DNA from: Nannocystis bainbridge
GTDB taxonomy: Bacteria > Myxococcota_A > Polyangia > Nannocystales > Nannocystaceae
Length of the DNA: 64,000 bases
NCBI RefSeq assembly: GCF_028368995.1
Contig: NZ_JAQNDL010000001.1
Location: forward strand, 3,168,001-3,232,000
Direction of reading: 5' to 3'
The notes beneath the pieces were generated by a model. The model made no database searches, was not told the origin of the DNA, and was given only the letters and a program-made list of their open reading frames with translations. The translations under genes were made by a program, and so were the position numbers. The first letter of the stretch is position 1. Each line of letters begins with the position of its first letter. Below are positions 2,090 to 52,255 of this stretch, piece after piece.

Positions 2090-2101
2090 GCTGACCGCTC
2101 C

Positions 2102-2162
2102 GCCATGTCCGATCGGACATGGCACAAGAGACATGGCGCCGAGGACATGCCCTCGGCGCCAT
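2102..2162. repeat. 14-bp-phased array (4 units) of the TGTCC-N4-GGACA family between convergent genes
   Basis: Units: TGTCC-GATC-GGACA 2106, TGGCA-CAAG-AGACA 2120, TGGCG-CCGA-GGACA 2134, TGCCC-TCGG-CGCCA 2148. CAT falls at 2104/2118/2132/2146/2160. Also a perfect 22-bp palindrome at 2102-2123 and a 12-bp inverted repeat at 2133-2162. Confidence 0.85.
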
Positions 2163-2184: not shown

Positions 2185-5859
<3,675 letters not shown>

Positions 5860-6000
5860 GTCTTCAGATTTCAACGAGAGCGCGGTCGCGCGAGCACGGG
5901 CACGGTCGAGGCGTGGCATACTGCGGCCTCAGACAACCTCGTCCCGGCGAGGTTCCCCGCGATCCCGACGCCCGCACGAACGCGGGCCCCCTACGCCGGA

Positions 6001-13674: not shown

Positions 13675-13766
13675 AGCAATTCATGCGCGTTTGTGCCCCG
13701 CCCGGCCTACTGGCCCCCGGACTGGTGGCGGCCGGCAGCAGGGGGGGTATAAAGCAGCGTCGCCCC

Positions 13767-14483
13767 ATGCTCACGGCCAGGTCCACACCGCTGCCCGAAG
13801 TTTTGGCAGCGCTGCCGATCTTCCCGCTGCCGAACGTCGTCCTGCTGCCGGGTATGGTGCTGCCGCTCAACGTGTTCGAGCCGCGCTACTTGCAGCTCGT
13901 CGACCACGCGCTGAGTGAAGGCCAGCACATCGGCGTGCCGCTGCTGCGGCCGCGCGGCGAACGGACAGCCGAGCGCAAGCCGGCGATCGAGCCGGTGTTC
14001 GGGCTCGGCAAGCTGGTATTCCACCTGCGCCTGCCCGACGGTCGGCGGTTGATCCGCCTCGAAGGCCTCGGCCGCGTGCAGCTCGTGCGCGAGCTGTCGG
14101 GGGCCAACCTCTTCCGCGAGGCCGAGGTCGAGGCGCTGCCCGAGCCGCCCGTGTTCGACAAGCCGTCGCTGCTGCTGCTGCGCTCGCAGATCGAGCGGCT
14201 GGCCCGGCTGTCGGGCGACGACGGCGACGCGCTCGGCTCGCTGCTCGCGCTGCCCGACCCGCGGATCCTCCTCTACGCGCTGACCGCCTTCCTCCCCAGC
14301 CTCGAGCTGCTCGGCGGCCACGACGTCGCGTCCGCCGCCGCCCGCCGCGAGCTCGTCGACCTCCAGCAGCAGAGCCTGGCCGCCGACACCCCCGAGGACC
14401 GCCTCGGCTTCCTCGTCGACCGCACCGCGTTCCTCCTGCGCCGCCTCGGCGACGGCCCCGAGGCCTCGATCCTGCTCAACTAG
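13767..14483 (+). CDS. LON peptidase substrate-binding (N-terminal) domain protein
   Basis: LPIFPLPNVVLLPGMVLPLNVFEPRY...LPDGR.LI.LEGLGR. No ATPase or protease domain. Confidence 0.85.
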   Translation: MLTARSTPLPEVLAALPIFPLPNVVLLPGMVLPLNVFEPRYLQLVDHALSEGQHIGVPLLRPRGERTAERKPAIEPVFGLGKLVFHLRLPDGRRLIRLEGLGRVQLVRELSGANLFREAEVEALPEPPVFDKPSLLLLRSQIERLARLSGDDGDALGSLLALPDPRILLYALTAFLPSLELLGGHDVASAAARRELVDLQQQSLAADTPEDRLGFLVDRTAFLLRRLGDGPEASILLN

Positions 14484-14484
14484 C

Positions 14485-14574
14485 GGACATGTCCGCCGCG
14501 ACATGCTCGATGGAGCATGTCCGCCGCGACATGCCCGCCGAAGCATGTTCTGTAGGACATCTCGCAGGACATGC
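14485..14574. repeat. 14-bp-phased tandem array (5-6 units) of the TGTCC-N4-GGACA family between convergent genes
   Basis: CAT at 14488/14502/14516/14530/14544/14558. Units include TGTCC-GCCG-CGACA twice and TGTTC-TGTA-GGACA. Degenerate copies continue to about 14695. Confidence 0.85.
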
Positions 14575-14703: not shown

Positions 14704-15789
14704 TCAGGTCACCGTGCGCAGCAGGCTGCTGCGCTTGGGCCCGGTCGCGCTGAGCTTGCTGAGGGCCAGCGCCGCGCGGGCGGCCACGTCGGTCAGGGCC
14801 TTGGCCTGCTCGCTCGCGGGCGCGCCCTCGACCACCGGCACCCCGGACTCGCCGCCGTAGGAGATCTTGTTGTCGATCGGGACCTGGCCGAGCAGGTCGA
14901 CGCCGAGCTCGCGGGCCAGCGCCACGCCGCCGCCGCTGGCGAAGATCGCGTCGTGGTGGCCGCACGACGGACACACGTAGTAGCTCATGTTCTCGACCAC
15001 GCCGACGACCGGCACCTCGAGTTTATTGAACATGTTGACCGCGCGGCGGACGTCGATGAGCGCGACCTCCTGCGGCGTGGTGACCATGATCGAGCCAGTG
15101 ATCGGGATCAGCTGGGCGAGCGAGAGCTGGGCGTCACCTGTCCCCGGGGGAAGGTCGACGATCAGGTAGTCGATCTCGCCCCACTCGACGTCCTCGAGGA
15201 ACTGCTTGAGCAGCTTGTGGATCATCGGCCCGCGCCAGACCACGGCGTTGCCGGGCTCGACGAAGAAGGCGACGCTCATCACGGGGATCCCGCGGTAGAG
15301 CGCGGGGCTGATGCGGTCGCCGGACAGGGTCGTCGAGGTCTCGCGCTCCGGCGTCCCGAGCATCTTCGGCACGCTCGGCCCGTAGATGTCGGCATCGAGC
15401 AGCGCCACCTTGGCGCCGAGGCGGTGCAGCGCCATCGCCGTGTTGACGCTGACGGTGCTCTTGCCGACGCCGCCCTTGCCGGCCGCGACCGCGAGGACGT
15501 TCTTGACCGTGGGCAGGCGGTTCAGGTCCTGGCGCGCCGGCTTCTGCGGCACCTTGAGGCCCCACTCGATCGTGCCGCGGAGGTTGCGAGCGGCCAGCGC
15601 CGCGACCACCGACGCCTCGAGGGCCTCGCGCAGCGGGAAGCCCGGCGAGATCAGATCGATCTTGAACGTCGCCTCGCCCGCCGCATCGATGCGGACGTCC
15701 GAGACCTGGTCGGCGACGATCTCGCGGCCCGTCGCCGGGTCCTTGACGCCCGACAGCGCGGCCAGCACTTGCTCCACGGTGACGCTCAT
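14704..15789 (-). CDS. apbC: Mrp/NBP35 (ApbC) Fe-S cluster carrier ATPase
   Basis: AAGKGGVGKST, DADIYGPS, VWRGPM, DLPPGTGD, VTTPQEVA, ENMS..VCPSCG. Confidence 0.95.
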   Translation of the reverse strand: MSVTVEQVLAALSGVKDPATGREIVADQVSDVRIDAAGEATFKIDLISPGFPLREALEASVVAALAARNLRGTIEWGLKVPQKPARQDLNRLPTVKNVLAVAAGKGGVGKSTVSVNTAMALHRLGAKVALLDADIYGPSVPKMLGTPERETSTTLSGDRISPALYRGIPVMSVAFFVEPGNAVVWRGPMIHKLLKQFLEDVEWGEIDYLIVDLPPGTGDAQLSLAQLIPITGSIMVTTPQEVALIDVRRAVNMFNKLEVPVVGVVENMSYYVCPSCGHHDAIFASGGGVALARELGVDLLGQVPIDNKISYGGESGVPVVEGAPASEQAKALTDVAARAALALSKLSATGPKRSSLLRTVT

Positions 15790-21267: not shown

Positions 21268-21309
21268 TGCACCTTCGGACATGTCCTGATAGACATGTCC
21301 GAATAGACA
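21268..21309. repeat. Three head-to-tail 14-bp units of the TGTCC-N4-GGACA family
   Basis: TGCAC-CTTC-GGACA, TGTCC-TGAT-AGACA, TGTCC-GAAT-AGACA, starting immediately after the moaX stop. Confidence 0.85.
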
Positions 21310-31008: not shown

Positions 31009-31297
31009 GGACATGTCCCGAAGTTCGCGTGAGGCGACGCGCACGATCACGGCGTCGTGCATGGCCCGATCGACCGCGAGCTGCGACAATCACATGTCCC
31101 GAAGGACATGTGCACTGGCGCGCGCAGCCGAGCCCGCTGGCAGCCGTGACCGCGCTCGACATGTCCCCGGGGACATGTGCACTGGCGCGCGCGACCCGGC
31201 TCGCCGCGCTCGCCGTCGGCGCCGCGCGGCCGACTCGGGGCGCCTGCCACGCCATAACTTTCGGACATGTCCTGAAGAACATGTGCGTCGGCGCGCC
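31009..31297. repeat. Direct repeats (about 34 bp) built around TGTCC-N4-GGACA
   Basis: ACATGTCCCnnnGGACATGTGCACTGGCGCGCGC at 31092-31125 and 31159-31192, a diverged copy at 31265-31297, and a half copy at 31009. Confidence 0.85.
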
Positions 31298-32484: not shown

Positions 32485-32513
32485 GCAGCCTGTATTTTAA
32501 AAATACAGGCTGC
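32485..32513. terminator. Perfect 14-bp-arm inverted repeat with AT-rich core between convergent genes
   Basis: GCAGCCTGTATTTT-A-AAAATACAGGCTGC. Confidence 0.5.
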
Positions 32514-32535
32514 TCTTGTGTCGCGTGTCACGATG

Positions 32536-32645
32536 AGCCTGTCCTTCGGGACAGGCTTTTCTCGCGTCGAGCTTCTTGGAAGCCTGTCCTTCGGGACATG
32601 CTGCTTCTTGCGTGGCCCGAAATGATGGCCATGTCCCTTCGGACA
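32536..32645. repeat. Three perfect TGTCC-N4-GGACA sites spaced 45 and 47 bp
   Basis: AGCCTGTCCTTCGGGACA is identical at 32536 and 32581. TGTCC-CTTC-GGACA at 32632. Confidence 0.88.
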
Positions 32646-33256: not shown

Positions 33257-34945
33257 TCAGGCTCGGGCGCCCAGATGCGGCCGCGCCTGCGCGTAGCACC
33301 ACGCCAGCACCAGCAACAGCGGCACCAGGCTGAGCGGGCCTGGCAGCCCGAGCATTCGCCCGAGGTTCGCCGGCCCGGTGTAGCCGGTGTCCGTCGCCCA
33401 GATCCGCGGCCACGCGTGGCCCCACAGCGGGTCGCCGAACTGCGGCGCCTCCGGGGCCGACGCTGCCAGCAGCAGCGTCAATGCACCCGACAGCAGCGCC
33501 AGGCCCAGCACTGCCCGCGGCACCGCGCGGATCGCCGGCGCCAGCGCCAGCGCCAGGAACGGCAGCATCGGCACGCAGTGGCGCGGGCCGATCGCCGCCC
33601 CGCCGTCCCACATGTAATAGCCGGCGTTGAGCGCCAGGTAGAAGCCGATCACCCCCAGGCACACCGCAGCGACCTGCCTCACCGGCCATGTCCCCGAGGA
33701 CCTGCTCCATGGGCCAGGTGGCCAGCCGCGCAGCTCGCACGCCAGCCCCCACGGCGCCAGCAGCAGCACCGGCGCCAGGTAGAACAGCCCGCGGAACGCC
33801 CCGAACAGCAGCTCCAGCAGCACCCCGGGGTCCGGCGCGTGGATGCCGTAGTTGACGCGCATGCCCTCGGCGAACTCGGCCAGGTAGACGAAATCGTAGC
33901 CGGTCTTGAGCGGGCCGCCGAACGCCACCGAGTGGTAGATCGCCAGGGCGATCGCCGCCGGCGCCCCGCCGAGCGCCGCCACCACGGCGAAGCGGGTCCC
34001 GCGGCGCAGCCAGGCGAACAGCCACAGCAGCGCGACCGGGACCGCCGCCGGGTACTCGCACAGCACCGCCAGCCCGAGGCACATGCCCGTCCCGAAGGCC
34101 ATGGCTGTTCGACCATGTCCCAAGAGGATGCCGGCGAACCCGAGCAGCAGCAGGTCGGCGCACAGCTGGTGGCCGTAGAGCGCCGAGCCGTAGATCAGCG
34201 CCGGGGTCGCCAGCGCGTAGGTCGCCGCCAGCAGCAGCGCCCCGGCGCGGTCGCCGAGGCGGCGCAGCGCCAGCAGGTACAGCGCCAGCGCGCCGAGCAC
34301 CGCGAACACCCCGACCGAGCCCACGCGGCTGACGTACAGCGCGGTCCGGTAGGCCTGGTTGTAGAACAGCCGGTCGCCGGGACGGCGGGCCGCCGGGTCG
34401 CGGTTGGGGTCGCGCGGGTCGAGCGGGACCAGACGGACCTCGGGCGCGTCGGCGCCGACCAGCCGCCCGGCCCCGTAGTAGAGCGCGTAGGCGGGCGCCG
34501 CCAGCAGCGACGTGCCGGGCGCCTTGTCGCTGTAGAAGTGGCCGTCCCGCTGGCTCTTGTCGCCGGTGGTCGCGTGGTAGTCGTCGATGATCGTCGTGCC
34601 CTGCTCGACCAGCGCGCGCGTCAGGGCCAGGCGCGAGTTCTGGTTCCACGCGGGCGGGCCCGAGAAGTACGAGGTCGCGGCGAACACCGCCACGGCGAGC
34701 GGCACCAGCACCGGCGCCTCCGCTCGCACGCTGGCCCGCAGGCTGTCGCCGCGCTCATTGCCTGCGTCGCCGGAGGCTGGCGCTTCGACGTCCGGGCCGC
34801 GCCCTTCGGAACATGTCGCTTCGGACATGTCCTCTCGAACATCTCCGACACTCCACCCCGGGCCTCCCGCCCCTGCCCCTTCGGACAGGCCCTCCGAGCC
34901 TTGCCCGGGGCGGCCCGGGTCGCCGGAGCCTGGCCCTGCGGACAT
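33257..34945 (-). CDS. Polytopic membrane protein, GT-C/ArnT-like glycosyltransferase
   Basis: First-loop WNQNSR...GDKS...FYSDKAPG, about 11 TM helices, LCEY, FGGPLKTGY, RGLF, WDGGAAIGPRH. Start uncertain (34945, 34828 or about 34729). Confidence 0.7.
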   Translation of the reverse strand: MSAGPGSGDPGRPGQGSEGLSEGAGAGGPGWSVGDVREDMSEATCSEGRGPDVEAPASGDAGNERGDSLRASVRAEAPVLVPLAVAVFAATSYFSGPPAWNQNSRLALTRALVEQGTTIIDDYHATTGDKSQRDGHFYSDKAPGTSLLAAPAYALYYGAGRLVGADAPEVRLVPLDPRDPNRDPAARRPGDRLFYNQAYRTALYVSRVGSVGVFAVLGALALYLLALRRLGDRAGALLLAATYALATPALIYGSALYGHQLCADLLLLGFAGILLGHGRTAMAFGTGMCLGLAVLCEYPAAVPVALLWLFAWLRRGTRFAVVAALGGAPAAIALAIYHSVAFGGPLKTGYDFVYLAEFAEGMRVNYGIHAPDPGVLLELLFGAFRGLFYLAPVLLLAPWGLACELRGWPPGPWSRSSGTWPVRQVAAVCLGVIGFYLALNAGYYMWDGGAAIGPRHCVPMLPFLALALAPAIRAVPRAVLGLALLSGALTLLLAASAPEAPQFGDPLWGHAWPRIWATDTGYTGPANLGRMLGLPGPLSLVPLLLVLAWCYAQARPHLGARA

Positions 34946-49299: not shown

Positions 49300-49631
49300 T
49301 GCTCTTCGGGACATGTCCGTGAGGGCATGTCCCGAGCGACAGCTCGACTGAGGCTCTGCCCCACCGATCTACAGTGCTTCGGGACATGACTCCGAGGTTA
49401 TGTCCGCGCGAGCATGTCCGCGCCACAGATTTTTCGTCGGCGATGCCGGTCCGCGACGGCGCTCGCCGGGCATCGTGATGACCTGGCCCGAGGGACAGCT
49501 TTCCCTCATCCGGCCAGCGGGCGGGCCGGGTGGCCAGCCGGCGGGACACCGCGTGACCGCGGCGCCGCGTCGGCGCCGGCTTTTTCGCTGGCACGCGGCT
49601 TGAAGTCCTTCGGGACATGTCCCAAGGGAGT
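49300..49631. repeat. Dense cluster of 14-bp-phased TGTCC-N4-GGACA-family units
   Basis: Tandem units at 49300/49314/49328 and 49373/49387/49401/49415, a single unit at 49484, and a pair at 49604/49618. Confidence 0.85.
49589..49603 (+). promoter_or_regulatory. Putative sigma54 -24/-12 promoter of radC
   Basis: TGGCAC-GCGGC-TTGA matches TGGCAC-N5-TTGC except at the last base. Confidence 0.5.
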
Positions 49632-51301: not shown

Positions 51302-52255
51302 TCAAGCGTCCTGCGGATCGCCCTCGCGGGCCCGTCCGCGGCGCGTCCTCGCGGCCGGGAGCGCGGCCAGGCGCGGGATCCCGGCGGCCGCAGCGGCGAA
51401 GAACTCCGGATCGAGCTCGACCCCGACGCTCTCGTAGCCGACCGCGACCGCGGCCGCGATCGTCGAGCCGCCGCCCATGAACGGGTCGAGCACCACGCCG
51501 CGGCCGAGCGGCAAGGCAGCACGCACCAGCTGCCGCATCAGCGCCTGCGGCTTGAGCGAGGGGTGAGGCGAGAGCGCGCGCTCCTCGGGCCGGGTCGGCG
51601 CGGAGGCGATGACGTCGGCGAACGGCTGGTCAGCGGAGATCCGCCGCAACCCACCGGTGCCCCACCGGCGCAGGTTGTCCTGGACGCGGCCCTCGCACGG
51701 CTTGCGAAACAGCCCCCACGGCTCCCACGCGGACCGCGGCATGACTGTGACGTCGGCGAACTCCTCGTGGGCGTTCTTCGGCCGGTCGCCGCCGCGCAAG
51801 GTCTGGACCAGGCGGATGATCTCGGCCCGCTTCTCGAACCCGGCCGCGAGGAACGGCCCGTACACGAGGTGCGAGAGCAGCGGGTTGCCGGCGATGAACA
51901 CGTGCGCGCCAGGGACCAGCACGCGCATGGCCCGGGCGGCGAAGTCGGCGAAGAACCGGGCCATGGCGTCACGCTCGTCGGCCGACAGGACGGTGAAGCG
52001 CGGCAGCGGGCTGCGGGTGCTGCCGTCCATGGTCGGGGGGATCCGCCACACCCCGCCGTGACCGCTGCGCAGCTTGGCAGTCTCGAGCGCGGTGTATTCC
52101 TTGAGGCCGTAGGGCGGGTCGGTGACGATCGCGTGGATCGATCTCTCGGGCTGCGCGGCCATCCAGCGCAGGCCGTCCGCCCGCACCAGCGTGTACGCGG
52201 CCTCGCCGAGCCGGTGCGAGCTCGAGACGAAGCTTTCCTGGTCGGTCGCGACCAC
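51302..52255 (-). CDS. Orphan DNA methyltransferase (N6-A/N4-C, beta class)
   Basis: IVTDPPY precedes HPSLKP and VLDPFMGGGST, then GVELD. Confidence 0.9.
   Translation of the reverse strand: MVATDQESFVSSSHRLGEAAYTLVRADGLRWMAAQPERSIHAIVTDPPYGLKEYTALETAKLRSGHGGVWRIPPTMDGSTRSPLPRFTVLSADERDAMARFFADFAARAMRVLVPGAHVFIAGNPLLSHLVYGPFLAAGFEKRAEIIRLVQTLRGGDRPKNAHEEFADVTVMPRSAWEPWGLFRKPCEGRVQDNLRRWGTGGLRRISADQPFADVIASAPTRPEERALSPHPSLKPQALMRQLVRAALPLGRGVVLDPFMGGGSTIAAAVAVGYESVGVELDPEFFAAAAAGIPRLAALPAARTRRGRAREGDPQDA

Follow-up and report, generated by a model that had tools for sequence, protein, structure and literature searches.

REP and BIME elements, which go with RAYT transposases, are extragenic palindromes that cluster after genes and between convergent genes. 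The sites of the sequence-specific proteins Noc, SlmA and MatP are spread over the chromosome, and the stoperators of mycobacteriophages are asymmetric sites that block elongation; both kinds are far fewer than the copies of the word described below. HIP1 of cyanobacteria is described (PMC5861425) as a hyper-abundant palindrome that occurs more than once per gene and has a proposed role in chromosome structure, and HIP1-type palindromes as having had no known reader for decades. Operators of PadR regulators are described as inverted ATGT/ACAT motifs with a spacer of 8-10 nt (PMC3506622). SinR is described as a tetramer that prefers inverted repeats (PMC3163267), and the SinR-SlrR heteromer of Bacillus subtilis as a cause of premature termination at two sites inside an operon (10.1101/2025.01.06.631544).

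The DNA analyzed here, a stretch of 64,000 nucleotides referred to as the window, belongs to the genome of Nannocystis bainbridge (G000; 11.05 Mb, 71% GC) and carries multiple copies of the word TGTCC-N4-GGACA. This word resembles HIP1 in being a hyper-abundant palindrome that is conserved both within and between genes, and REP/BIME elements in its extragenic placement 3' of genes and between convergent genes. HIP1, however, is one exact 8-mer linked to methyltransferases, whereas the Nannocystis word is bipartite and degenerate, is tiled in 14-bp steps and accumulates after stop codons. Its core geometry is the same as that of PadR operators, of which there is one local operator per genome. 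We found no paper containing the word in the open-access literature, supplements apart, and a search for work on Nannocystis repeats returned nothing on the system of words and arrays, as judged by titles and the beginnings of abstracts.

A five-unit array, with 16-24 bits per unit, occupies positions 14490-14559 of the window. It is preceded by a half-site at 14485-14489, starts 6 bp past the stop codon of the upstream gene and keeps its phase up to 14560. The upstream gene (13767-14483, forward strand; the start is that of our gene caller and the open reading frame may begin at 13683) encodes a LON substrate-binding domain (PF02190), and the array faces a convergent gene (14704-15789, reverse strand) whose product matches the profile of Mrp/ApbC-type P-loop NTPases (PF10609). 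All five relatives carry a phased array behind the stop of this LON-domain gene; its unit sequences differ, and in G003 it is interrupted. The preliminary description had placed CAT at 14488, 14502, 14516, 14530, 14544 and 14558 and had counted five phase positions at 2104-2160 (CAT at 2104, 2118, 2132, 2146 and 2160), and these coordinates hold. It had taken the unit to be a 14-bp palindrome bounded by TG and CA; the strict 14-bp unit stands, but its definition is replaced by TGTCC-N4-GGACA, with five units at 14490-14559. The statement that units within an array mostly differ is borne out by the genome, where only 44 of the 917 arrays of at least four units contain a repeated unit, but it does not extend to the array at 14490-14559, in which units 1 and 3 are identical and TRF reports a repeat at 14488-14548 (period 28, 87% matches), that is, a 28-bp duplication.

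The second five-unit array of the window (2092-2161) fills a convergent intergenic region and is partly conserved in five relatives. Two of the arrays listed earlier have three units each: one at 21268-21309, directly after the moaE stop codon, which is also present in G001 and G003 and whose position is occupied by another gene in G005, G007 and G010, and one at 49300-49341, after the stop codon of a hybrid histidine kinase gene. The remaining three proved shorter than stated. The stretch at 5831-5872 contains two scoring units (5831-5858, conserved in 5 of 5 relatives), that at 49373-49428 contains two of the four (49387-49414, flanked on both sides by weak half-units), and at 34800-34841 two strong units (34814-34841) follow a weak one at 34800 that scores 4.8 bits. 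The window also contains short clusters of the motif at 31009-31280, conserved in four relatives, and at 32505-32613; their steps are about 60 bp and 46 bp, respectively, and the clusters of the first stretch are out of 14-bp register with one another. A gene for an N6/N4 DNA methylase (PF01555) is located at 51302-52255.

Across the G000 assembly, the perfect word TGTCC-N4-GGACA occurs 1,987 times, as opposed to three occurrences of the reversed pattern used as a control. Spacers of three (16 copies) and five nucleotides (5 copies) are rare, which indicates a dyad with a fixed spacer. Since the CA flank is absent on both sides in 888 of the 1,987 perfect units, CATG is not required, and the true unit is the 14-mer, with the junction GGACATGTCC set aside as a unit. 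An iterated 20-bp matrix (RCM TGTCC YWWR GGACA KGY), applied with a cut-off of 11 bits or more, recovers 13,460 units in G000 compared to 174 for the reversed matrix; the word is degenerate and matrix-like as well as bipartite. In viral contigs, eight isolated matches were detected.

The 14-bp phase that had been proposed from the window is evident genome-wide. Autocorrelation of CATG gives 3,736 pairs at 14 bp compared to 72 at 13 bp and 262 at 15 bp, with further peaks at 28, 42, 56 and 70 bp, and in the window alone 18 pairs lie 14 bp apart, as opposed to a mean of 0.42 and a maximum of 2 in 200 triplet shuffles. With matrix units, G000 has 5,540 pairs at 14 bp, none at 13 bp and one at 15 bp, followed by a smooth decay at 28, 42, 56 and 70 bp (2,977, 1,758, 932 and 369 pairs). 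The special realignment of bound dimers every 42 bp that had been suggested is not supported: the pair counts have no excess at that distance, no period of three is seen in score profiles along arrays, and the identity of units three steps apart is barely raised (0.476 versus 0.452-0.455). Clusters of one to seven units number 4,761, 1,486, 651, 254, 372, 210 and 61, respectively, giving a second peak of array size at 5-6 units; the rise at five appears at four thresholds and also in roomy intergenic regions, so that limited space is not its cause. Polymerization from a strong nucleation site had been envisaged as well. In its open-ended form this fits less well than a size-limited assembly, which is favored because of the mode at 5-6 units, because the best-scoring units within arrays are the second and the second-last, and because 4,761 of the 7,815 clusters are single units.

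The preliminary description had missed the location of the arrays, which is at the 3' ends of genes, with promoters avoided. According to our own gene calls for G000, perfect sites per kb amount to 1.55 in convergent, 0.64 in tandem and 0.20 in divergent intergenic regions and 0.089 in coding sequence, the latter accounting for 824 of the 1,987 sites (41%). Unit density rises from 0.23-0.63 per kb before the stop codon to 10.2 per kb in the first 50 bp after it, and 627 of the 917 arrays of at least four units start between -25 and +30 of a stop codon. Just before gene starts the density drops to 0.68 per kb, and the block of ribosomal protein and rpoBC genes contains 4 units versus 40 expected. 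Codon bias of the upstream gene, taken as a proxy of expression, had no link to the presence of arrays (P 0.83 and 0.20). An ordinary transcription factor regulon was rejected because the sites are not concentrated at promoters (0.20 per kb in divergent versus 1.55 in convergent regions). Unlike the sites of Noc, SlmA and MatP, the word is neither excluded from nor confined to the regions where GC skew switches: units lie on either side of both switches, with a single 25-kb dip (4 units) at 1.525 Mb of contig C3. The same genes are present two or three times at the contig ends around 4,518,000-4,536,000 of C1 and 3,022,000-3,033,000 of C2, which suggests assembly overlap or duplication.

Comparison with two relatives (about 375 kb aligned for each) revealed conservation of the arms. 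At fourfold degenerate sites, A/T bases of the arms are changed at 15 of 140 and 28 of 149 positions versus a background of 0.67-0.69, and G/C bases at a rate of 0.075 versus 0.165. At codon positions 1 and 2, motif bases often diverge more than the background, so the coding sites lie in loosely constrained regions of proteins or reshape those regions. Where a G000 gene end carries an array, the relatives also carry one at 13 of 19 and 14 of 19 gene ends, compared to 6 of 228 and 4 of 227 otherwise, with a convergent array scored for both of its genes. Neighboring units are scarcely more alike than random ones (identity 0.45 versus 0.43). As the preliminary description had proposed, these observations support the view that the arrays are under constraint between species rather than decayed duplications.

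If the units acted in transcripts, as hairpins that terminate transcription or stabilize 3' ends, one could account for their position after stop codons, for the frequency of TTCG and GAAA-like loops among the common spacers and for one array that scores as a terminator. However, arm pairing equals the expectation from independence (for example, 0.495 versus 0.471 and 0.690 versus 0.672), with no hairpin covariation; loop orientation ignores the transcribed strand (TTCG 153, CGAA 158); no Rfam match was found within the window; and a hairpin has no need of steps of exactly 14 bp. The RNA hairpin explanation is therefore disfavored, with hardly any probability left to it, and the data support a signal that acts at the level of DNA.

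Selfish repeats of the REP/BIME kind that a transposase or duplication had spread, and that were tolerated downstream of genes, would likewise be extragenic, palindromic and biased towards convergent regions, and some arrays do contain duplications of 14, 28 or 42 bp. Nevertheless, the Y1/RAYT-type transposase (PF01797) had no match in G000, an assembly that is 90.5% complete, and there is no master copy: 3,348 of 4,737 units have distinct sequences and the commonest two-unit string occurs four times. The word also differs from REP/BIME elements in lacking hairpin covariation and in having 41% of its perfect copies in genes, where it is conserved. We regard this origin as largely refuted and very improbable.

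Alternatively, the word could be written by a neutral drive, such as methylation-directed repair of the kind proposed for HIP1, or biased uptake or conversion, and have no reader function at all. Such a process would explain why the word is found both inside and between genes and is rare in the low-GC islands of G000, why its variants track replichore skew, and why spacers and array sequences turn over fast between species. It is hard to reconcile a position-blind process with the sharp step at stop codons and the mode at 5-6 units, and the word is degenerate, with a dispensable CATG. A neutral origin thus appears improbable to us. We consider it very likely that a protein dimer reads the word on double-stranded DNA.

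Under the dimer reading, the word would serve as operator for a DNA-binding protein that is abundant, dimeric and sequence-specific. The arrays would form a docking lattice on which about 5-6 dimers sit side by side, and single sites may spread the reader over the chromosome in the manner of a nucleoid protein.

The phylogenetic range of the word is narrow. Among 73 genomes of the family Nannocystaceae, 23 genomes from three genera are motif-rich, with 103-2,824 strict sites, as opposed to 0-12 in the other 50 (motif-poor) genomes and 0-14 in 400 further genomes of the phylum. In a scan of named genomes, 75 of 80 loci among the matches listed came from Nannocystis or Nannocystaceae. All three motif-rich genera seem to belong to a single clade. 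In a segment of a motif-poor genome (G050:C7:100001-300000), GCTTC-N3-GAAGC (9 versus 0.8 expected) and TGTC-N7-GACA (9 versus 2) are mildly enriched.

A candidate for the reader, which is what is new here, emerged from a listing of helix-turn-helix (HTH) proteins, which led to two paralogous XRE/Cro-C1 genes with sites upstream. The listing comprised 257 HTH-like proteins of G000, and distribution profiles were drawn up for only seven HTH families, over all or part of the Nannocystaceae. The first gene (copy A; G000:C1:4266693-4267073, reverse strand, outside the window) encodes 126 residues, and the second copy (copy B) is located at G000:C3:1091654-1092055. The XRE protein is present in 20 of 23 motif-rich and 0 of 50 other family genomes, the three misses being metagenome-assembled genomes that are 60, 65 and 67% complete; all 11 Nannocystis genomes have two copies. 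It matches PF01381 (HTH_3) with 47.7 bits versus a curated cut-off of 23, and its recognition helix is invariant across 31 homologues. Copy A ranks 192nd of 8,255 genes by codon bias, whereas copy B is average (4,420th).

Motif sites are found upstream of the XRE gene in all 30 loci fetched (30 of the 31 matches), compared to 3 of 30 for the reversed control. In 5 of 5 loci from genus g4, a phased pair or triplet lies 32-60 bp before the start codon; the background for phased promoter sites is 122 of 5,608 G000 genes. These promoter sites are weak (6-20 bits), those of copy A lie partly behind the stop codon of the upstream gene, and the proximal sites are weak or missing at four distant Nannocystis A copies. 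The XRE protein probably regulates its own promoter. In metagenomes, 42 of 42 loci with the XRE gene carry the word (243 hits versus 3 for the control), while 119 kb from motif-poor genomes yielded 3 hits for the word and 3 for the control.

In the predicted structure of the XRE protein (pLDDT 81.6), a long basic insert of about 20 residues separates helices 1 and 2 of an XRE core, which is followed by a two-helix tail similar to the C-terminal helical hairpin of SinR. The best fold match is SinR itself (1b0n; 19% identity, TM 0.47), which shares with the candidate an XRE domain followed by a C-terminal helical oligomerization region and differs by the low identity and the absence of the basic insert. 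The homodimer prediction scored 0.25 against a mark of 0.42, which speaks neither for nor against a dimer, and a PDB sequence search with the XRE alignment returned no hits. Sister XRE proteins (P0036-P0055) have the same basic insert and a different recognition helix.

Because the motif-rich genera look like one clade, any clade-specific gene would show the profile of the XRE gene, and the correlation is not made of independent observations. Given a protein dimer as reader, we consider it reasonably probable that this reader is the clade-specific XRE protein, and for the joint claim of a lattice with the XRE protein as its predicted binder we see the chances as evenly balanced.

The same lattice could instead be read by an expanded family of stand-alone Fis-like HTH proteins, or by a family-wide regulator whose regulon exploded in the motif-rich clade, namely the one that reads a single site in genus g32; this would leave the XRE protein as a bystander or as a target. 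The Fis-like family, to which G000:C1:1320087-1320284 (L337:1087-1284) and some 10 paralogues belong, numbers 3-14 copies in each of the 23 motif-rich genomes and 0-3, mostly one, in the other 50; copy numbers correlate with motif density (rho 0.53 across related genomes), and several copies have top codon bias. However, the Fis-like recognition helix is identical in motif-poor genomes, and the Fis-like promoters lack phased arrays. In most genomes of the family the Fis-like gene is single and syntenic, and the additional copies have a promoter-like element in common. The sister genus g32 is devoid of the XRE gene (0 of 8 genomes), yet 7 of 10 loci retrieved from the surroundings of g32 sites have one site of 20-25 bits at the same divergent promoter. 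This near-perfect site (L362-L366, L368 and L369, around position 1980-2010) is located between a gene for a thiamine-pyrophosphate enzyme and a stressosome-like operon, both labeled from sequence, with neither an HTH gene adjacent nor an XRE gene present, and genome-wide enrichment of the word is absent from g32. PadR and WTFL-type winged-helix genes also adjoin arrays of CATG stepped by 14 bp. The PadR loci of Nocardia and Actinopolymorpha (L124-L127, with a short-chain dehydrogenase gene) carry the same phased word in an array of three to four junctions, likely the PadR operator. The g32 site without an XRE gene and the word at PadR loci indicate that other proteins can read the word. Taken together, a different reader of the same lattice seems to us rather unlikely, though by no means negligible.

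Six other HTH families failed to show the rich/poor profile of the XRE gene. PadR is missing in G000 and, among five other genomes, scores over the cut-off in three and below it in G001 and G013. The WTFL-type winged-helix family is encoded in 22 of 23 motif-rich genomes but also in 25 of 50 motif-poor ones, and G000 shows no enrichment of the word that belongs to this family, TGAA-N6-TTCA (32 versus 62 and 24); in sister genera, WTFL-type genes (L139-L144, L175 and L188) have their own 14-bp-stepped operators of this type, which reach some seven units in G060. The NarL-type regulator occurs throughout the family (67 of 73 genomes), with the same helix in motif-rich and motif-poor genomes, the second XRE family (g3290) is found in 70 of 73 genomes, and the BlaI type is found in two of five motif-rich genomes. 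A nucleoid-like family with a C-terminal winged helix was rejected as well, being present in 69 of 73 genomes. Its members (G000:C2:1707006-1707593, L192, and paralogues) combine a helical N-terminal region with a basic linker and the C-terminal winged helix; they have no Pfam match and very high codon bias, and might be undescribed nucleoid proteins. LexA was dismissed because G000 has a single lexA gene whose promoter has no matrix hit. This gene (G000:C1:3164914-3165552), located 2.4 kb before the window, carries no copy of the word and has what resembles a Myxococcus-type box. In sum, the system lacks defining properties of REP/BIME elements, HIP1, Noc/SlmA/MatP sites, PadR, LexA and ordinary regulons.

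When bound, the arrays may act at the ends of genes as a roadblock or boundary that RNA polymerase meets from both directions, a proposal that we advance tentatively, at slightly less than even chances; a role as a supercoil boundary or nucleoid anchor would fit equally well. A symmetric array would suit a convergent gene pair, and the scarcity of units at promoters and in the ribosomal block fits an obstacle that binds tightly. SinR-SlrR acts at two sites in one operon, whereas Nannocystis has thousands of sites at gene ends in rows of 14-bp steps. No rho match exceeded the curated cut-off in any of 11 Nannocystaceae genomes, namely G000, five motif-rich and five motif-poor ones (G001, G010, G011, G013, G065, G019, G081, G050, G024 and G022). 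The Rho-less groups named in a passage of PMC12360218 do not include Nannocystaceae. Hairpins with T-tails at gene ends are rare in motif-rich (8 of 162 and 3 of 172) and motif-poor genomes (7 of 166, 2 of 153 and 5 of 172) alike, which leaves unsupported the idea that arrays replace terminators kept by the motif-poor genera. As no Rho was found in either group, its loss is older than the word and possible without it, and leaves room for a gene-end signal read by a protein. Against the roadblock stand the equal lack of Rho and U-tailed hairpins in motif-poor genera, the location of 824 of the 1,987 perfect sites in genes and the finding that genes followed by arrays show no raised codon bias.

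A more specific version, which we put forward as a speculation with rather low odds, is that in this Rho-less lineage an XRE protein of the phage repressor type has been turned into a genome-wide punctuation system, in which 5-6 dimers on a phased array of 70-84 bp behind stop codons would end transcription in both directions; this would be a predicted class of terminators, encoded in DNA and read by a protein, distinct from intrinsic and Rho-dependent ones.

Here a hyper-abundant palindrome comes with a named, testable candidate reader of 126 residues and with cultured hosts. If the XRE protein is the reader, a protein of a repressor family would have become a nucleoid protein that binds sequence-specifically at more than 10,000 sites. 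Should the arrays terminate transcription, they would bear on the question of how transcripts are ended in a high-GC family that has few U-tailed hairpins and no detectable Rho, and would matter for the expression of Nannocystis natural-product clusters in other hosts.
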